From Eledone cirrhosa (Eukaryota), in the NCBI GenBank assembly GCA_964016885.1, contig OZ024743.1:371690001-371754000 (forward strand): a DNA stretch of 64,000 bases. Reading direction: 5' to 3'. The translations under genes and the position numbers were made by a program. Of the stretch, positions 12,055 to 38,477 are shown one piece after another (position 1 is the stretch's first letter; each line of letters starts with the position of its first letter). The notes under the pieces are model-generated. The model saw nothing but the letters and a program-made list of their open reading frames with translations. It did no database searches and had not been told where the DNA came from.

Positions 12055-12662
12055 TCAGGTCACCAGTTGGTGCTACTGGCAACATGTATCCCAGTACAAC
12101 CTGTCCCATGGTCGGGTCGTTGGCGACTAAACTGGCAACCCCACCAAGGTTTCTTGGTGAGGAGGGTGACTTTGGACATCCTGCAGGACTAAAAACAAAA
12201 CCTGTCAAAGGGCAAAGGAGCTCTTAAGAGTCAATGGCCAGCCAAAATCACCGGGAGAGATGACCCCTTAGCCTTTGTCAAGGCAGAATTCTAGGAGAAG
12301 GAAAACTCTGATATAACACCTGAAACCCTGATGGTATCCAATGATGTTGACTTGTTCTTCTTTTTGGTAAATATCATCTTGGTTAAGAGAGTGGGACTGG
12401 CTTTGTGCAGTGCCTTTCCTCACTATAAAAGCTTCACGGCACAGGCATTGCTTTATATCTGGAGATCTCTCTGCACTTGTCGTCACATGGTACCATGGGC
12501 CCAGCACTATGTGTCAATAATTGTCACAAGTGTAGTATTTGTACCAGAGTTTTCAAGTCGCTGGCTGGACTAAAAAGTCACACTCGTTCAGCGCATCGGT
12601 AGGGGTTCTCCTACATGGATATAAAGTAGTGGCCGTACTCGAAAACGAGTTGGCAGCCACCA
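12053..12662 (+). mobile_element. Short internally deleted RTE-like non-autonomous element (5' leader plus ORF C-terminus)
   Basis: 12531-12602 translates CSICTRVFKSLAGLKSHTRSAHR* (C2H2 finger typical of some RTE C-termini). 3' hairpin CTCGAAAACGAG. Flanked by (TA)n on both sides. Confidence 0.55.
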
Positions 12663-13077
12663 TATATATATGTATATATATAAATATAAAGATTTACATA
12701 TACACAAACTAGACATATATGTGTTTTGGCAACCATTCACGATGTGGCTCAATGAAGAATTAATAAATTAAATAATCAGAGCAATATACTATAAAGTATG
12801 TCCATAGAATCATTTGATAATATATATACACCATTTCCTCTCCCAATTAGCATAATTAACTACACAAAAAAATCAATTAGACCAGGCTATAAGATTAAAA
12901 GGCACCTATGAAGAAACAGTAGATAAATAAACGACAACAATCTCTTCGCGGCCAACCGCCATAGAATATTTACCCAACATTTCAACAGCATGTGGAAATC
13001 GATTAAATATACCATCAACCATACACAATTAGGTATAAAATTAAAGTTAGAAGAAATGCTCATACACATACCAGGAT

Positions 13078-13163
13078 TATGTCCCTACCCTTGGGTTTCA
13101 TTCGCATTTTGATATATCCTATTAAGGATAAAATCTCGAGCTTTGAACTCATCAGGAGACAAA
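13078..13163 (-). ncRNA. Type I hammerhead ribozyme motif, family B (left arm)
   Basis: Reverse complement reads TGTCTC-CTGATGA-GTTC...GAAT-GAAA-CCCAAGGG-TA-GGGACA. Confidence 0.75.
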
Positions 13164-13551
13164 CTCGTTAGGACAGATTATTTTCTAAAGTGGTCCCCGC
13201 CAGACACAAATTCAAAATGGCTAAGAATTGTGACGTGGAAGTGGTCAAGTCAGAAAGAATGTGATTGGTTGCTAGAAAGCGCAGCCCAATATTGCCCAAA
13301 TTGCATCTCAAACTTATGGGAGATTATATTTAATAATCTCCCAACCTTATGGAAGATTATATTTAATAATCTCCCATAAGGTTGAGATGCAATTTGGTCA
13401 ATATTGGGCTGCACTTTCTAGCAACCAACCCACTCGCCGTAAGCAACCAATCACATTCTTTCTGACTTGACCACTGCCACGTCACAATTCTTTGCCATTT
13501 TGAATTCGTGTCTGGCGGGGACCACTTTAGAAAATAATCTGTCCTAACGAG

Positions 13552-13637
13552 TTTGTCTCCTGATGAGTTCAAAGCTCGAGATTTTATCCTTAATAGGATA
13601 TATCAAAATGCAAACGAAACCCGAGGGTAGGGACATA
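13552..13637 (+). ncRNA. Type I hammerhead ribozyme motif, family B (right arm)
   Basis: TGTCTC-CTGATGA (13560-13566)-long stem II-GAAA (13616-13619)-CCCGAGGG-TA-GGGACA. Confidence 0.75.
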
Positions 13638-14025
13638 ATCCTGGTATGTGTATGAGCATTTCTTCTAACTTTAATTTTATACCTAATTGTGTATGGTTGA
13701 CGGTATATTTAATCGATTTCCACATGCTGTTGGTATGTTGGGTAAATATCCTATAGCTGTTGATCGCGAATAAATTGCAGTCATTAATTTATCTACTATT
13801 TCTTCATAGGTTCCTTTTAATCTTATAGCCTGGTCTAATTGATTTTTTTTGTGTGGTTAATTATGCTAATTGGGAGAGGAAATGGTGTATATATATTATC
13901 AAATGATTCTATGGACATACTTTATAGTATATATATATTTATATATATATATATACACACACACATATATACAGGCTCATGCAAACACACACATATAAAA
14001 ATAAATATACACTCATATACATACA

Positions 14026-14072
<47 letters not shown>

Positions 14073-14399
14073 ACATACCCACAAACCCATACATATATAT
14101 ATACATATATACACACACAATATCCGTACATACACGCATATATATACACATACATACACAAGTATAAAAGTAAGAATACACACACACATACATACATATA
14201 AAAACAAAAACATACACACACATATATGCTTATATATATATATATACGCATACATAGACATGTAGAAACATACACACATACATATTACAAACCATATACA
14301 TTTACACAAATATGCAAGAATACACACGCAATTATAAATAAATACATACAAAAGTGCATACATACATAAACATATATTCATACATATCTATGAATATAT

Positions 14400-16145
14400 T
14401 ATCTGAAAAGTAGAAATGGGGTTCCCGTAAATAAAATAATGAAATGTAAGGGTGTAATGTAGAAAGAGTATAACTAATAGGTAGAAAAAAAGGGGGATAA
14501 GAGTAGTGATAGGGTATGACAAACGATATGTGAATAAAGTGAATATGTGAGTCTTATTGGTTGTAGATAAAGGTTAAAAAAGGGGGAAGAACTGTTCAGG
14601 GTCTCTAAAAGGTTAGGAAGGGTAGACAGAAAGAAGGTGGTCGGTGTATATGTGTTAAAAGTATGACCGAAAAAGGAAACTATATTTATAATTAAAATAA
14701 AATAAAATAAATAAGTGGGAGATAATTGTGTATAAAGGTTGTGGTAAAATGTATGTGTTCATAAAGCGATCTGGGTAGTGAGTGGAAGAGTTAATTTGTA
14801 AAAAGAGGAAGCTCAGGGTGGTTGAGTGTTCATAGATATTTTATACCAGCTGGAAAGGAGATGTTATTTCAGGTGTGGACAACTTCTGAAGATATTAGTT
14901 TTAGAATTGAGGCAAGTAGCAGGATTTTTCAGATTTTGCAGTATTCTGTAATTTTCGGTTATACACTAAGAACATTTCTTTGTGCCTTTCTGGTATTCTT
15001 TTAAGTAGTCTAAAATGGACCAATCAATCGAGTATGGAATCTTGTGTTCTTTTAACTCCCACAATTTATTAGCCAGCACCGTAGATGCTCTTTTGTCTGG
15101 GTGTCTGAAGGAAGCGATGTGCATAGTATCTGATTTTGAATTTATCTTGTGTCATGCCCACATATCACTTACTCCTGGCTGATTGGTTCTTCACAATGGG
15201 TGTCAGTTTGGTCTCATATACGATTGATTTTGTATTGCATTTGCCCTGAAAGGGGCATTCTTCAGGTTTCCTGCAACTACATCCTGGGTTTCCTTTAGTG
15301 ATATTCGTGTTGATAATTTTAGATTTCATGGATGGGCAGCAAGAGTAGCTAATTTTAACTAAATTTCTATTAAATATCTTATTATATCTATGTTGTTGGG
15401 GGAAATGTTTGTCTAGAAGTTCAAGGAATTTTCTTCCTACATTAGTTTTAACTGTTAAAAAGAAAGGAGTAAACCATATAATTTTTCTTTTCCTGTTATT
15501 GTGTTTAGTGGTAGAAGGAGCAGTGGGTATATATTTGATTTGTTCGTTGAAACCACTATTTTTAAGGGCCTTATTATAATAAGGATTTGCTTTATTGAAA
15601 ATATCTATAGAAGGAGATAAGGTAGAGATCCTAAGACTAATATTAGGAATAAGGTTTTTAAATACTATAGGAGGATGGCAAGACTCTTTGTGTATATATT
15701 TCAAATTTTCGTTGGGTTTATGATAGGGTTTGAAAAAAGCAGTAGGTAGGTCAAGATTGATGTTGAGGAAGTTGGTATTAGTTAGGTTCGTATCTCTAGT
15801 AATTTTGAGGTTTAGGTTAGCGAAGGTATTAATTAAGTCTTTACGGAATTTATCAAGGTTATGGCCGTTGGTGGTATGAGAAACTGCCAATCCGTCATCT
15901 CAGTATAAGCCGATATTATGGTTGGGAAATTTCTCTTTAAGAGTGTGGAGGAGGAATAATCCTACTAAATCGCATACGTTGGCGCTGTCGAACGAGCCCA
16001 TCGAGATATCAAAAGGGTTTTCTGGGCTTGATTTTTTAACCCAAGTTTCTTCTTTAGCGAAAAGTAGCGTTTTCCTAGCCTGTAAGATATCATCCTCCTC
16101 TAAATTAGATATATTAATGAAATGTCTAGTGAAATCTAATAAGGA
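14400..16145 (-). mobile_element. Penelope-like element, 5'-truncated and frameshifted (RT plus GIY-YIG)
   Basis: FDISMGSFDSANVCDLVG; NIGLY*DDG (YRDD position); FLNINLDL; SCHPP; CSCRKPEECPFQGKC; IVYE. Confidence 0.85.
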
Positions 16146-16179
16146 TGTATATATGCGTGTGTACATATATATATATATA

Positions 16180-16870
16180 TATACAATTTTTAATTTTTTA
16201 ATTCTTTATTTTCGTGTTTTTGTCTATCTCTGCGTTTATGGATAAGTTGCGCACGTGCGAACGTGCATTTATTTTTATTTTTTCTTGCTTGCCTGCTCAT
16301 TCAGCTACTGAACTGTATGGATGTGAGTGTACGTGTGTGTATATACTATTGTATATGTCTATATATATGTGTGTGTGTGTGCGTGTGTGTATATGTATAT
16401 ATATATATATATATATGTGTGTATATATATACACATATATATATATGTATGTGTGATTGTATGTATGTATATGTGTATGTGTACGTATGTATACGCATGT
16501 GTATATGTACGTGTGTATGTATGTATATACATATATGTGTTTGTATATATATGTATGTGTGCATGTATGTATGTGTATGTGTGTAAGTATAAGCATGGGT
16601 AGATGCTTATATATGTATATGTATATATTTATATATATACATATATATATTTATTAATTTCCCCATTACATTACGTCCGTTATTTTATTTTATATCAGCC
16701 TCGCTTTCAATTGTTCTAGACTTTCTTTTGAAATCCATATCTCACATTCGCTTTAAATAAATTTTCATTCTGACGAACCATTTCAGAGGTCTGTGTCAAG
16801 CGCGTCTATCTTCATGAAACCTTTGGTAAATGGAATAATTGTCTTATGTTGTTTATTACATAACAATATA
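16180..16870 (+). mobile_element. Non-coding interspersed element with a family C hammerhead
   Basis: Inverted homolog of 10830-12012. Confidence 0.7.
16759..16840 (+). ncRNA. Type I hammerhead motif, family C
   Basis: TTTTCATT-CTGACGA (16770-16776)...GAAA (16816-16819)-CCTTTGG-TA-AATGGAAT. Stem II is partly degenerate. Confidence 0.65.
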
Positions 16871-17954: not shown

Positions 17955-18420
17955 CTGCAGAAGAAAAAAAGAAAGCTATTAATACAAATGGCCAATTATT
18001 TGACTGTTTTTTGTTGGGTGGGCCTAAGCTGCTACAAAGGCTAACATGTATTTTAAAATAAAACCACTAAATGTAAAGTGGTAGTGTTAGTATCATGATC
18101 AAATGCACTCAGTCAACCCTGTAAAGTGGTAGAGTTGGTGTCAGGATAGCGTGGAAGATGGATGTTAAACGAAGATGATGATGATGATACTTAGTAAAGT
18201 ATTTTTTACCAGCGAAGATTCAAAACCGAATTTGAGGTTTCTCGCCTCTGGGACCACCCATTATTGGAAGGTTCCCACCATTGTCCTGTCAAGACAACGA
18301 TGATAACCGTACATACCACTTGACCTGTGACCCCAGCTTCCTGGGGGACGATATCCACATAGCTGATCATAAATCAACCTCATATACACATCCTTCTAAC
18401 TATAGCATTATTATAAATAC

Positions 18421-21400
18421 AAATCGTAGAAATGCTAGAGCGAAAGGAAGTTGATGTATGCTGTGTGCAAGAGACTAGATGGAGAGGAGGGTCTGCTAGA
18501 GTCCTTGTAGGAAAAAGCCAGTGCTACAAATTTTTCTGGGTGGGAAATGACGATGGGATGGGTGGTGTAGGTATACTATTAGCTGACAAGTGGGTAGATA
18601 AAGTAATCTCAGTGTACAGGGTAAATGCAAGAATCATTAAACTCAGACTAGTCCTGAATAAGACAATTACCACAATAATATCAGCTTACGCACCCCAATC
18701 GGGGCTGACAGACGAACTTAAGGATAGGTTTTACGAGTCCCTAATACACACTACTGCTCTAACAGACGACAAGGACTTCCTAATCATTGCAGGAGATTTT
18801 AACGGACACGTAGGTAAACACTGCGACGGCTTCAATAGAGTACATGGAGGCCATGGAGTTGGCACAAGGAATGAGGAAGGATTCAGACTTCTAGAATTCT
18901 GCGACGCCAATGACATGTCGATATGTAACACAAACTTTAAAAAACCCGACAACCACCTGATCACCTATAGATCAGGGGAGCACTCTAGTCAGTTAGATTT
19001 TATCCTCATCAGAGGACGTGACAGATGGACGGTCGTAAACACAAAAGCCTTCCCTAGTGAGGAATGTACATCCCAACATAGCTTAGTTGTCAGCGACCTC
19101 ACGGTCAGAACTAGACGAGCCCTGAAACAGAGGCCAACCTGGAGAAGAAAGATCTGGAAGCTGAAAGTCCCCTCAACCAGTAACAGATTTAAAGATATTT
19201 TACTCAACGCCTACGACAGTAAAGAAGAACAGATAGAGACATTTAACGTAGAAGAGAACTGGGAGTTCCTAAAAAATAACTTACTAGAGGCGACGGATGA
19301 GGTTTGTGGCTGGAGTAAGACCTCAAGCAGGAGGAGAGTGACTTGGTGGTGGAACAATAAGGTAGATGAAGCAGTCAAGGCCAAGAGACAGGCATGGAAA
19401 GAATGGAAGAACGGGGGGAGCAGGGTACATTACATAGAGACCAAGAGGGAAGCTAGGCGACAAGTATACTTAGCTAGGAGGGAAGCAGAGGATAGAAAAT
19501 TCAAGCATGTTTTACAACGTGAGGACCAGAAACAGGAGGTATTCAAGATTGCGAGGCAGTGTGTCAGAGATAGTTGTGATGTCATTGGAGAGAAGTGTAT
19601 CCGGAATGATAAAGGTGAGCTTGCCCTCACAAGTGCTGAGAAGAAAGATGCATGGAAGAGTCATTATGATAGATTACTAAATGAGGAGAATGCATGGGAA
19701 GAAGAGACCCTACCCCACGTAGACCCTATAGAGGGACCAGCAGTACAAGTCAGCGGCAGCGTAGTAAGTAAGGCAATCAGAGATATGAAGATAGGGAAGG
19801 CAACCGGTCCATCGGGTATAGCTGCCGAGATGCTGAAGGCATCTGGGTCTGTAGGTCACACTATAACCACACGTATCGTTAACCAGGTAATACTAGAGGG
19901 GGCCATACCAAAAGATTGGTGCAGTAGCATCATTGTCAACTGCTACAAAGGTAAAGGCGATGCACTAGATAGAGGAAACTATAGAGGTATAAAGTTGATG
20001 GACCAGGTCATGAAAGTAACAGAAAGAGTTATAGCACAGCTGATTAGGGACCGGGTGAATATAGACGAGATGCAATTTGGGTTTGTTCCAGGGAAAGGCA
20101 CCACTGATGCGCTCTTCCTTGTGAGGCAATTACAGGAAAAGTACCTAGCTAAAAGTAAGCCACTCTACTTGGCATTTGTCGACCTTGAGAAAGCCTTTGA
20201 CAGAGTTCCACGTGCAGTAATCTGGTGGGCTCTTAGAAAACTAGGAGTAGATGAATGGCTTGTGAAAGCGGTACAAGCCATGTATAGGGGAGCAGTCAGC
20301 AAAGTTAGGATTGGCAATGAGTATAGCGAGGAATTTAGCGTACAGGTTGGGGTCCACCAGGGCTCTGTTCTTAGCCCTCTCCTGTTCATCATAGTCCTGC
20401 AGGCAATAACGGAGGAGTTTAAGACCGGATGCCCATGGGAACTCCTGTATGCTGATGACCTCGCACTCATAGCTGAATCTATGGTAGAACTAGAGAATAA
20501 ATTCCAAACCTGGAAGCAGGGACTAGAGAGAAAGGGCCTCAAAGTCAACATGACAAAGACTAAGGTCCTTATAAATAGACGAGAAAACAGAACCCAGATC
20601 CCCTCAGGGAAATGGCCTTGCTCAGTATGTAGGAAAGGTGTAGGTAGGAACTCCATTCTTTGCCCCAAATGCAAACAATGGGTACACAAGAGATGTAGCG
20701 GGATCTCAGGAAGCTTAATTAAGAATGTAGGATTCACATGCAGCAGCTGTGCTGAAACAGCAAGCAAACAGCCACAGGAAACAAGTACCACCAATCTCTG
20801 GGAGGGCCCTGTAGAAACAGTAGACAGCTTCTGCTACCTAGGTGACCGAATTAGCAACGGAGGTGGGTGCTCAGAAAGTACAATAACTAGGGTAAGAACG
20901 GGATGGAAGAAGTTTAGGGAACTACTACCACTGCTAGCTGCAAAAGGCTTCTCCCTCAGAATGAAAGGCAGACTGTATGATCCGTGTATCCGAACAGCGA
21001 TGTTGCATGGTAGTGAGACCTGGGCGCTGAAGGTGGAAGACTTACGTAGATTAGAGAGAAACGAAGCCTGCATGCTCCGATGGATGTGTAACAGTAATAT
21101 ACGTGAACGACAAAGCATAAATGAATTGAGAGAGAGACTGAGCATAAGAGGAATCAAATGCTGCGTGCAGGAGAGGCGGTTACGCTGGTATGGACATGTG
21201 ATGCGTATGAAAGATGACAGCTGCATAAAAAGGTGCAGAGCACTAGAAGTTGATGGAAACCGCGGAGTGGGGAGACCCAAGATGACTTGGGATGAGGTGA
21301 TAAAAGCCGACCTTACCCAACTACACCTCTCAAAGTCAATGACACACGACCGTGACTTCTGGCGTCACGCAGTAATACAGGGTACCCGACCTCCCATGGG

Positions 21401-21712
21401 TACATGCTGAAGCATATAAACAATATGCCCCCCCCCCCACCGCAAGGTGGTCGTGGAGGTGCCACGGCAAAAAAAAGCACCCAGCCCACACTGTAAAGTG
21501 GACGTGTAGGCGCCACGAAAAAGCACCCAGCACTCACTGTAAATGAGGTTGGTGTTAGGAAGGGCATCCAGCTGTAGAAATCAAGCCAGATCAGTTCCTG
21601 TATGAGCAAGGCATGGTCAGCCGACCAGACACTGCCCACAACAGGACAACCCGTCTAACCCATGCTAGCGTGGAAGAACGGACGTAAAACGGTGATGATG
21701 ATGATGATGATG
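18421..21712 (+). mobile_element. RTE-clade LINE subfamily A, slightly 5'-truncated
   Basis: 992-aa ORF, 3'UTR and (GAT)n tail; lacks the first TxNV endonuclease strand. Confidence 0.95.
18432..21410 (+). CDS. RTE ORF: APE endonuclease, reverse transcriptase and internal PHD-type finger
   Basis: VQET, SAYAP, GDFN, LDF, SQH; NYRGI, QFGF, FVDLEKAFD, GVHQGSVLSP, YADD, FCYLG. Confidence 0.93.
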   Translation: MLERKEVDVCCVQETRWRGGSARVLVGKSQCYKFFWVGNDDGMGGVGILLADKWVDKVISVYRVNARIIKLRLVLNKTITTIISAYAPQSGLTDELKDRFYESLIHTTALTDDKDFLIIAGDFNGHVGKHCDGFNRVHGGHGVGTRNEEGFRLLEFCDANDMSICNTNFKKPDNHLITYRSGEHSSQLDFILIRGRDRWTVVNTKAFPSEECTSQHSLVVSDLTVRTRRALKQRPTWRRKIWKLKVPSTSNRFKDILLNAYDSKEEQIETFNVEENWEFLKNNLLEATDEVCGWSKTSSRRRVTWWWNNKVDEAVKAKRQAWKEWKNGGSRVHYIETKREARRQVYLARREAEDRKFKHVLQREDQKQEVFKIARQCVRDSCDVIGEKCIRNDKGELALTSAEKKDAWKSHYDRLLNEENAWEEETLPHVDPIEGPAVQVSGSVVSKAIRDMKIGKATGPSGIAAEMLKASGSVGHTITTRIVNQVILEGAIPKDWCSSIIVNCYKGKGDALDRGNYRGIKLMDQVMKVTERVIAQLIRDRVNIDEMQFGFVPGKGTTDALFLVRQLQEKYLAKSKPLYLAFVDLEKAFDRVPRAVIWWALRKLGVDEWLVKAVQAMYRGAVSKVRIGNEYSEEFSVQVGVHQGSVLSPLLFIIVLQAITEEFKTGCPWELLYADDLALIAESMVELENKFQTWKQGLERKGLKVNMTKTKVLINRRENRTQIPSGKWPCSVCRKGVGRNSILCPKCKQWVHKRCSGISGSLIKNVGFTCSSCAETASKQPQETSTTNLWEGPVETVDSFCYLGDRISNGGGCSESTITRVRTGWKKFRELLPLLAAKGFSLRMKGRLYDPCIRTAMLHGSETWALKVEDLRRLERNEACMLRWMCNSNIRERQSINELRERLSIRGIKCCVQERRLRWYGHVMRMKDDSCIKRCRALEVDGNRGVGRPKMTWDEVIKADLTQLHLSKSMTHDRDFWRHAVIQGTRPPMGTC

Positions 21713-35947: not shown

Positions 35948-38477
35948 TATTGCTTATTGAAAATAATAATAATTGTGAAATAAATAGGAAAAGAAATTAT
36001 ACAATTTTTAATAGCTTTAATCTTAAAGTAGAAGTAGAGAATAATTATAAAATAGTTAATTTTTTAGATGTAACTTTAAACCTTAATACTGGTCTTTATT
36101 ATCCATTTCATAAAATCAATGAGAATTTAAACTATGTTAACTTTAATTCCAATCACCCCAGATCCGTTGAAGACACTATTGTAAATTCTGTGCAGCAACG
36201 TATTTCTAGAATTTCAGTGAATACAAATATATTTGAAGATAAGGCACAATATTATAACGAAGTGTTAAGTAGAGCAGGCTATAATAATGAAATTAAATAC
36301 ATTGATAATAAGGATGTGCCAATTAACCATAACTATAATTATAATAGGAAACCTTACACTAACTCGACAATCAAAAGAAGAAATAGAACTAGAAATATAT
36401 TATGGTTCACTCCCCCCTTTCTCATTAAGTATTAAAACTCCAATAGCTAAACTATTTTTTAAAGCTCTAGATAAGTGTTTTCCTAAGACACACAGGTATT
36501 ACTCAATCTTTAATAGATATACTATTAAATTATCATATTCTACCACTATGAATTTAGCATAGAATATTAATAGAATTAATAATAGAAACTTAAAACCTAA
36601 CCAGAATAGCATTAATATCTCTAGCAATATCCAATATAATGTTATGGCTCCCAATAATATAAATTCAGATAAATGTAATTGTAGAAATAAATCTAACTGT
36701 CCTCTAAATAATAACTGTTTAGTTAAAAATATAGTATACAATTGTAATGTCAAAACCAATGAAAATTCATTTAACTATGTCGGCTCTACTTCCACAGACT
36801 TCAAATTTCGTTTCAATAACCATAAATGTTCCTTTACGAATATTGGTAAAAAATCTTCAGCTTCTCTATCCAACTTATTATGGAACTTAAAATCCAAGAA
36901 TATTAACTATTCTTTACTTTAGGAAATTATCTCCAAAGCTCCATCATACATAGCTCTATCCAAAAATTCCTCCCTTTGCGTTGAAGAAATATTCTTTATA
37001 CTAAAAAGTAAGAACTCTATTAATTTGCGTAATAATTTATTTAGTTCTTGTAAACATCGTTTAAACTCAACTTTTAGATATATATATATAAAATGTAATA
37101 TATGGTTAATCTCCTTTACATAACGTTTTCTATATCCAACCACCTACAACTCCATCCCTCAGATTATACCTATATATGATTCATATATATTTAATTTATT
37201 TTCTATTATCTCTACTTCATAAATATACTTTATATTATTACACTTATCAATAGATTATAACCTTTTTATATGACTACTTGAAATTCTTTTAAGGAAAATT
37301 TTCCTGAAAAGATTTTCTGAAGGTTTTAGAAAATTCTTGGTAAAACTTTTGAAAGTTCCTTTGAAAGATATGGAAAAAACATTATTTTCATATCTTCCAA
37401 TATTTTATATTTTCAAACATTTTTAATATATATCCAAATATTTATATATATGTGGAATAACGTATGCTTTTTATATGTGTAGAATAACCTATGGTTTATG
37501 TTTTAATTATATTCTTAAGATAAATTTATGACTTCTTATAAAAAAAACCTATGGTTTATGTTTTAATTATATTCTTAAGATAAACATTTTTTTAAACTTT
37601 ATAACATTTATGACTTCTCATAAAAATTTTTTAAAAAGTTTTTTTAATGTATCCTTGGAGTCATTTGAGTTCTTAAAAAATTACTTCTAACTTCCTTTAT
37701 ACTTCCTTACTGTTTTTATAATCTAATTAAGTAGTTATTCCTTTGTAAACTCTCGTAAATTTTCATAAATTTGGAATTATTTGGATGTTTAAGCTTTGAC
37801 TTACAACTATTAATAAATATAATTTTGCCAAACTTACTTTAATCAAATAAACTATACTAGATTTTCCCCAATGTAAAATACTATACATTTAAATAATTTA
37901 TAATCCATAACATACACATCTAAACCAATATATTATTACTAATACATCTTAATATAATATAAATACTTCTGTCTTAATTTTAATTTTTAATATTAATATT
38001 AAATTAAATTTTTAATATTAAAGTAAATTTTAATCTTTAATTTTGATTTTTAATTTTTATTTTAATTTAATTTTCAACTTATCATTATAAGTATTGTAAT
38101 CACAACGTAATGAACCCTACATTCTAGATATTATTCTTCCACGTTAATCTTATTTCTTCTTTCACTTAGATATATTTACGTTCTATATATTCTCCCATTA
38201 AAATTTATTTCCTCGTTTACTCCGATTATCTTCACTGTCACTATGTATAATCGTTCTTTCTTTCTTCTATTTTTCTCCTTCCTTTTCTTCTCTCTCCCTT
38301 ACATATCCTCTTCTTCCAACAGTTTAATTTAAATAAACCATTATCTTTTCAACTTTTCGGACAGTCATTTGCATACTCACTCATAACTTTGAATTACCCT
38401 CAATAAAATATTATCTCAACTATCCAGGAAGCTCCAACCGTTAAGGTTGTCTTTTATTCCAGGTATGTCAATATTTA

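Follow-up and report, generated by a model that had tools for sequence, protein, structure and literature searches.

How does a palindrome of more than 1 kb, with a hammerhead ribozyme motif in each arm, come to lie within a TA repeat? The question is raised by positions 12784-13932 of a 64,000-nt stretch of the Eledone cirrhosa genome (contig OZ024743.1 of GenBank assembly GCA_964016885.1, positions 371,690,001 to 371,754,000; hereafter the window, to which coordinates refer), which an initial annotation made from the letters alone had read as a head-to-head pair of pseudo-long terminal repeats (pLTRs) or as a non-autonomous ribozyme-bearing foldback retroelement. The answer favored here, and considered likely, is that the palindrome consists of two head-to-head copies of a non-coding hammerhead repeat of ~680 nt, set in a TA repeat by what was probably a single insertion event of a Penelope-like element (PLE) reverse transcriptase (RT).

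Geometry and Parts of the Palindrome

The inverted arms first seen to meet at a centre are real. Complementary pairs were measured at 12866-13273/13442-13849 (408 nt, 95%), 12784-12872/13844-13932 (89 nt, 99%) and 13265-13343/13350-13428 (79 nt, 89%), the whole palindrome (12784-13932) matches its own reverse strand by BLAST at 90.1% across 1172 columns, and the overall complementarity of the arms (12784-13327 and 13357-13932) comes to ~90-95%. The extent originally given, 12786 to 13931, describes the palindrome correctly but not the left copy, which continues 100 nt beyond it, to 12684, as a tail that has no counterpart on the right arm. Besides this one-sided tail, the arms differ by ~30 substitutions and by a deletion from the left arm of 22 nt that are present in the right arm and in most family copies. 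At the centre, a 33-nt tandem duplication (13306-13338 and 13339-13371, 91% alike) accounts for the duplicated small hairpin already noticed there, GG(G/A)AGATTATATTTAATAATCTCCC, found at 13318-13342 and 13351-13375. The parts of the insertion and its flanks are as follows.

12650-12683, no strand: TA-rich left flank (target microsatellite)
12684-12783, minus strand: tail of the left copy, unit positions 577 to ~688, ending ...GTAAATCTTTATAT (S1 3' end)
12784-13327, minus strand: left arm, repeat body, unit positions 576 down to ~10
13081-13160, minus strand: left hammerhead motif, predicted cut between 13086 and 13085
13195-13268, minus strand: putative left promoter-like cluster (CCAAT, CRE-like, YY1-like, GC box)
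13306-13371, no strand: centre, with head-to-head junction, 33-bp tandem duplication and two 25-nt hairpins
13357-13932, plus strand: right arm, repeat copy, unit positions 1-576, ending ...TATAGTATAT (S2 3' end), tailless
13444-13520, plus strand: putative right promoter-like cluster
13555-13634, plus strand: right hammerhead motif, predicted cut between 13629 and 13630
13933-14080, no strand: TA/CA-rich right flank (target microsatellite)

The promoter-like motifs listed by the initial annotation are each present once per arm, all pointing outward: CCAAT (13447-13451, plus; 13264-13268, minus), the cAMP response element (CRE)-like CCACGTCAC (13477-13485, plus; 13230-13238, minus), the YY1-like GCCATTTT (13494-13501, plus; 13214-13221, minus) and GGCGGGG (13514-13520, plus; 13195-13201, minus). 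The statement that no real open reading frame (ORF) is present likewise holds, the arms containing only mirror-image antisense frames of 79-88 aa; as a candidate gene this antisense ORF was rejected, since it is not conserved and shows extra stops in 21/36 other copies. A longer stretch of right flank (13933-14160), tried as a sequence common to loci, was also discarded as TA/CA low complexity.

The Repeated Unit Is a Single Arm

When the genome (~3.0 Gb) was searched with the right arm, 40/40 scored places (40 scored of 4520 first-look candidates) matched at 91-94% over essentially the full length. With the centre as the query, 38 of 40 scored places matched one half of the palindrome only, and just one other place spanned a head-to-head centre (L033, 78% identity, different junction). 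The repeated unit is therefore the single arm, not the palindrome. The suggestion that the palindrome might recur as a unit is not borne out by this one divergent case among 40; of the element initially proposed, the ribozyme-bearing, PLE-type and head-to-head features stand, and the mobile foldback is not supported.

Alignment of the flanks defines a unit of ~680 nt, made up of a body (positions 1-576, window 13357-13932) and a tail, which measures 110-112 nt in other copies and 100 nt in the window's left copy (12783-12684) owing to a small deletion. The order within the unit is promoter-like motifs, type I hammerhead, body, S2, tail and S1. Two samples of further copies were drawn. The body-based sample, reached via the arm body or its 5' end, holds 37 other distinct places, namely 26 solo insertions, 9 head-to-head pairs and 2 atypical cases (L004, L033); the tail-based sample, with the tail as query, added 26 new places. 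An inverted 5'-truncated copy adjoins the 5' end in the window, at 9/37 places of the former sample and at 14/26 of the latter. Directly upstream of 22/26 solos lies a 5'-truncated partial copy with a constant unit-end to unit-start junction, a partial tandem that is lacking upstream of the window pair. Most solo 5' ends adjoin TA runs, and all listed terminal S1 and S2 ends pass into (AT)n.

The 5' ends of truncated copies were observed to cluster at the TA-rich stretches of the unit, at ~532-534 (L005, L006, L008, L017, L028 and L042 in the first sample, as well as both arms of L050), at 567 and where the last 35 nt of the tail begin, which fits microhomology joining to a TA target. A further apparent cluster (unit positions 286-292) was traced to microhomology at junctions. 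Rare non-CpG changes on the sense strand (L002-L042) show a mild strand bias, with 66 G>A vs 39 C>T, an excess that could stem from the copying step. L020 has, on the minus strand at ~1339-1500 of the oriented locus, a short inverted duplication placed precisely where unit end meets unit start; the sequence there reads ...GTAAATCTTTATAT TATTAAATATAAAGATTTAC..., and the duplication looks like a miniature of the window's centre.

Pairs Combine Two Different 3' Ends

Copies of the family end at either of two sites, S2 (...TATAGTATAT, unit position 576) or S1 (...GTAAATCTTTATAT, the end of the tail). Solo insertions end at S2 at 26/26 places of the body-based sample and at 9/11 places that start at the cut site (see below). 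All 25 pairs in which both outer ends are readable (the window, 9 from the first sample, 14 from the second and L073) combine S1 with S2, and neither S1+S1 nor S2+S2 was found among them. In the tail-based sample, 14 S1-ended copies have an S2-ended inverted partner; 2 internal tails, 1 odd case and the S1-ended copies weighed further below make up the remainder.

The two arms of a locus also resemble each other in their rare variants, of which 28 per 7175 nt are common to both arms, or 18 per 7020 nt without the divergent L033. The background, measured as sharing between loci, is 0.036 per 100 nt, and tandem partial copies, with 1 shared rare variant per 2988 nt, do not exceed it, whereas paired arms exceed it ~7-fold. 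The window arms have 3 rare variants in common per 544 nt (4 variants under a looser rule). Together, the S1+S2 rule and the common rare variants suggest one insertion event per pair.

The Hammerhead Motif

On the plus strand of the right arm (13555-13634), the motif reads GUCUC-CUGAUGA-G...C-GAAA-CC(CGAG)GG-U-A/GGGAC, the slash marking the predicted cut after GUA, and a corresponding motif lies on the minus strand of the left arm (13160-13081). It is composed of stem I (GUCUC/GGGAC), the core (CUGAUGA...GAAA, with CTGATGA at 13560-13566, plus, and 13149-13155, minus) and stem III (A-CC/GG-U). The order is that of type I, with all core letters in place (CUGAUGA, GAAA, A15.1-U16.1, cut after NUH), and the left arm is complete save for C11.1>U. 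Most of the 37 aligned copies have a 5-bp stem II base, GUUCG/CGAAC. In the right arm, stem II is down to 3 base pairs through two CpG-type changes; in the left arm, G-U stands at 10.1-11.1, the base of stem II, and a mutation of position 10.5 adds one mismatch, the core being intact in either case. Judged from their letters, both window hammerheads have kept the predicted catalytic core and carry a weakened stem II.

Across the alignment, 93.7% of stem cells are paired, vs 28-58% with the partners slid. One compensatory change was found, at the stem I pair 22-98 (CG in 22 rows, UA in 12), which separates GUCUC/GGGAC from GUUUC/GAAAC. Stem I has several further one-sided compatible changes, no double changes occur in stems II and III, which are conserved, and one pair of distal stem II is lost in one subfamily. 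Since a single inherited event plus compatible one-sided changes make up this signal, covariation support is modest. In a further subfamily, stem III is ACCC(UAA)GGGU, with a UAA loop and its pairing kept.

Copies That Start at the Predicted Cut

The predicted scissile bond falls at unit position 275. At 17 places of a sister subfamily with stem I GUUUC/GAAAC, 8 A/T letters directly precede GAAACGUAAUCC..., which puts the 5' end of the copy at that bond, compared with 2 places at a control position 5 nt upstream of the predicted cut. The same subfamily has an exact uninterrupted 24-mer over the cut site at 258 places; a copy number drawn from 35 exact patterns was dropped as too low, one large subfamily having a different stem III loop. 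A looser pattern (TA run 0 to 20 nt upstream) gave ~33 distinct places among the matches listed (the first 100 of 344 overlapping ones), and among these matches the ends of the TA runs form a step-like profile, with none in the 14 nt preceding the cut, 7 exactly at it, ~5 at 1-2 letters past it and the others a few letters further on, with TA microhomology. The 12 places of this class that were fetched comprise 9 solos spanning 275-576, 2 copies ending at S1 and 1 pair, and 3 more cases occur in the earlier samples (the old copy at L028, L066 and L070).

These copies suggest ribozyme cleavage in vivo, and the ribozyme probably cuts some transcripts there. The simplest reading of such copies is run-off reverse transcription on cut RNA, and a strong stop of the enzyme at a helix may be an alternative source. 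Because most copies, both window arms included, read through the cut site, uncut RNA is the main template, as was likewise reported in vitro (PMC11167929). In the literature, one study states that PLE hammerhead cleavage has no in vivo evidence behind it (PMC4209133), and no RNA-seq reads ending at a hammerhead cut were found (PMC11167929). Separately, a different repeat that shares TAATCCTGGTATG was seen, among the matches listed, to begin with GGGATTTAGTGATT directly after a TA run (e.g., C1:303769547 and C3:17998668); from its letters, it may be another family with copies starting at a ribozyme cut.

Origin of the Palindrome

In the proposed mechanism, a Penelope-like RT would copy the RNA of the repeat from both cut DNA ends. 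Priming by one DNA end would take place at S2, an internal UAUAU site (position 576), and priming by the other at S1, which lies ~110 nt further 3'. The two complementary DNAs (cDNAs) would then anneal via TTAT/ATAA within TTATATTTAATAA, a 13-mer that opens the unit and is nearly its own complement, after which each cDNA would template the strand of the other, thereby supplying second-strand synthesis. A later slippage of 33 bp would have duplicated the central hairpin, and both arms would have decayed by ~2-4%. At the junction in the window, the left arm stops at approximately unit position 10 and the right arm starts at ~1-5, the switch lying in TTAT within TTATATTTAATAA, so that unit positions 1/5-9 are present in the right arm and not in the left. 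These extra right-arm letters and the TTAT microhomology fit two cDNAs better than a simple snap-back.

Snap-back of a single cDNA on the self-complementary 13-mer, or a later inverted duplication at the DNA level, would nonetheless account for several features, as the arms stop no more than ~10 nt apart in unit coordinates, at a motif that is nearly palindromic, symmetric turn-arounds occur at three places (L050, L060, L065) and rare variants are common to both arms. However, such an origin should give identical outer ends, whereas the arms end at S1 and S2; the unit positions held by the right arm alone speak against it too, and most other pairs are asymmetric inside, as at L003 (378 nt beyond the unit start vs position 76) and L018 (position 106 vs position 453 of the preceding unit), which leaves it unlikely. 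Two independent insertions, in which a later copy came to land next to the first at its 5' end, for example through an endonuclease that prefers the AT-rich sequence of the element, would be in line with the unrelated extra copies found in the same TA repeat at several places (L014, L028, L005), and with arms that are about as far from each other (91%) as from other copies (91-94%). Yet, as solos end at S2 in 35/37 cases, independent insertions should yield mostly S2+S2 pairs rather than the S1+S2 of 25/25, and they do not predict the ~7-fold excess of rare variants shared by paired arms, so that this origin is judged quite improbable.

Two other explanations concern the nature of the palindrome itself. 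That it is a mobile unit, or a working locus for hairpin or small RNAs, would agree with matches at the centre to plant and animal microRNA (miRNA) hairpin models and with the long hairpin that read-through transcription would yield. Those matches are sub-threshold (51.7 bits vs a gathering score of 100) and reflect hairpin shape only, and Rfam miRNA-type matches of this kind, at the centre and in the TA repeats, were set aside as products of low complexity or of hairpin shape. As a unit the palindrome does not recur, the conservation of its arms is flat and neutral, and the editing that the initial annotation had proposed to look for is not apparent, each arm showing 2 A>G changes with no A-to-G bias; this explanation is very unlikely. 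A fold-back chimera or other artefact of assembly or sequencing deserves mention because such palindromes trouble assemblies (PMC8557442) and because no read or contig examined clearly bridges the centre: contigs of runs X1-X3 and X6 are short pieces of the whole repeat family that leave the centre unbridged, and restriction site-associated DNA sequencing (RAD-seq) reads X8-X10 mostly represent another copy (loose end ...GTAAATCT before 13357), with no clear bridge over the centre. Artefactual fold-backs, however, have near-identical arms, whereas here a 22-nt deletion, ~30 substitutions, a one-sided tail and a central duplication of 91% set the arms apart, and the head-to-head layout recurs at other places; an artefact is scarcely credible.

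Insertion by a PLE-type RT that copies one RNA twice has its own difficulties. No target-site duplication is readable in the TA repeat, and the nearly identical unit position at which both arms stop is what snap-back would also give. In the tail-based sample, 6/23 S1-ended copies have no detectable partner and 3 have a short internal inverted piece only; since partnerless S1-ended copies exist, the use of S1 is not strictly bound to pairs. Gene conversion between inverted arms could explain the common rare variants, which makes the S1/S2 rule the stronger of the two arguments. For the purified PLE protein in vitro, the start site did not differ between the two strands (PMC11167929), and the family tail of ~110 nt compares with 30-40 bp in PLEs (PMC8557442). 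No autonomous PLE partner with the hammerhead or the ends of the family was found by BLASTN against the window, in the locus flanks or in a search for a compact stem II. Of 35 copies, 25-29 keep the promoter-like motifs intact, vs a background of 24-26 +/- 6 (7-11-mers), so that no selection on them is apparent; as the conservation of the unit is also flat (85-98% per 25-nt bin), the family copies decay neutrally.

The ribozyme part of the proposal is subject to similar reservations. The cut-start copies among the matches listed all belong to the GAAAC subfamily, none to the GGGAC subfamily of the window. In a 121-nt context, the majority-type hammerhead fold reaches -21.6 vs a minimum energy of -26.7 kcal/mol, and the folds of the window arms reach -16.4 vs -26.8 and -18.1 vs -27.0 kcal/mol. 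The two hammerheads with a GC-paired stem III that were annotated initially hold at the motif level, in core and stems, whereas Rfam calls none: searching the whole window at the gathering score, and 12500-14200 at E up to 10, brought up no hammerhead family. The miss is likely to be due to the 39-nt insert in stem II, and a search for family relatives with a compact stem II found none.

Double copying of a single RNA by a PLE-type RT remains the preferred origin of the palindrome, and the window locus itself is most likely an inert relic. A broader proposal for the family, offered tentatively, is that every two-armed insertion is S1+S2, made from one RNA that was copied twice and whose cDNAs cross-prime via the 5' palindrome, and that the hammerhead would cut in vivo, leaving a distinct class of 302-nt copies whose 5' end lies at the scissile bond.

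Neighboring Features of the Window

The insertion adjoins a repeat resembling a long interspersed nuclear element (LINE), listed as follows.

12500-12649, plus strand: 3' end of a LINE-like repeat, its frame closing in a C2H2-like motif, with a TA-rich tail that hosts the insertion

A slightly wider extent for this 3' end is 12500-12660. Summed contig depth is ~1.1-1.7 million over the LINE-like repeat vs ~0.1 million over the arms, approximately ten times as much, and the LINE-like repeat is therefore far more abundant. Elsewhere, an uninterrupted frame of 997 aa (18417-21410, plus) with endonuclease-like and reverse-transcriptase-like parts corresponds to a LINE copy with an open ORF.

PLE-like material is also present. 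Remnants of PLE-like ORFs lie at 9672-10343 (minus), 14873-16205 (minus) and 35986-37078 (plus), with the RT end, a Cys-rich linker and a GIY-YIG-like part; they are mutually 32-67% identical, and a Pfam search of these three frames of the window returned no match. Seven minimal PLE-type hammerhead motifs occur at 7250-7270 (minus), 8174 (plus), 8593 (minus), 10708 (plus), 11549 (plus), 35777 (plus) and 38503 (plus), several of them near PLE-like ORF pieces. They consist of CTGATGA, stem II and GAAA followed by UAUAU, with stem I TTTATAAAAC/GGTTTTATAAA, and form a sequence family unrelated to the palindrome repeat.

The possibility, raised by the initial annotation, that the arms recur attached to a PLE ORF found no support in a regular link. 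When the unit was compared with the window by BLASTN, it matched the two arms only and showed no likeness to the PLE remnant at 14400-16245, and PLE-like ORF pieces occur in the flanks of 4 sampled loci only (L002, L003, L028, L042), in varied places and on varied strands.

Implications and Comparison With Known Systems

Taken by itself, the window locus is a relic of retroelement insertion of an ordinary kind. The family, in which pairing is strict in 25/25 cases, offers a clean natural data set on how the mirror-image copy and the one-sided tail of PLEs arise, and it bears on whether PLE hammerheads cut in vivo, in that a class of copies starts at the predicted cut. If true, two-site double copying together with cutting in vivo would let the genome report on two steps of the PLE cycle so far seen only in vitro or not at all. 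For annotation, the locus advises caution: such palindromes should not be named new foldback elements or hairpin-RNA genes.

Insertions of endonuclease-bearing (EN+) PLEs are described as (TA)n-targeted, with copies in partial tandem, a 5'-truncated copy inverted next to them and a tail on one end only (PMC8557442), and the purified PLE protein was shown in vitro to cut and extend both DNA strands, with reverse transcription starting at two internal sites that delimit the tail (PMC11167929). Like these elements, the family has 5'-truncated copies, partial tandems (pLTR-like) lying upstream and inverted copies set against the 5' end; it targets TA repeats or AT-rich DNA, its tail is one-sided and its hammerhead lies in the repeated part (PMC8557442, PMC11167929). 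In contrast to EN+ PLEs, the unit has no RT/GIY-YIG ORF and both window arms are almost full length; without an ORF, it is to be regarded as a non-autonomous element of PLE type and not as a PLE proper.

The hammerhead invites a comparison of its own. Like the minimal PLE hammerheads (PMC4209133), it has a type I topology, a short stem I and a long stem II, and lies in a flanking repeat. It departs from the minimal form in its stem III of 3-4 bp, which is stable and GC-paired, and in the 39-nt insert of stem II, and its sequence is unrelated to the minimal motifs of the window. Because of this stable stem III, the family hammerhead should not need dimerising.

Like the present unit, metazoan non-LTR (long terminal repeat) retrozymes are small non-coding repeats with a type I hammerhead that occur alongside PLEs, their proposed movers (PMC7229834; 10.64898/2026.07.22.740005), and some copies begin at the ribozyme cut. 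The unit of ~680 nt differs from the 150-450 bp given as typical (PMC7229834; 10.64898/2026.07.22.740005). Retrozymes form tandem arrays with one ribozyme per unit, whereas the family consists of dispersed solos, partial dimers and head-to-head pairs; a few sampled places come near two units with two ribozymes, for example L009 (position 99 through 576 of the next unit). Being neither tandem nor of the usual unit length, the locus is not a typical retrozyme array.

Two further systems produce inverted structures. In the twin priming of LINE-1 (L1) elements, reportedly described by Ostertag and Kazazian in 2001, reverse transcription is primed from both DNA ends at one target and the products are joined via microhomology. 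Twin priming inverts part of a single copy, whereas both window arms hold the same region, which implies two rounds of copying from the template. Long inverted arms with little or nothing between them also characterize foldback (FB-type) DNA transposons and hairpins like those of miniature inverted-repeat transposable elements (MITEs). Unlike foldback transposons, the palindrome is not the multiplying unit, has no terminal inverted repeats with a target duplication and carries no subrepeats in its arms.

Among these systems, the locus most likely belongs with the two-armed insertions of PLE type, a layout with precedent in such elements, the inserted repeat being non-autonomous and hammerhead-bearing. 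The locus differs from published descriptions in its tail of ~110 nt, in its two nearly full-length arms and in a hammerhead of monomer type whose stem II has a long insert.

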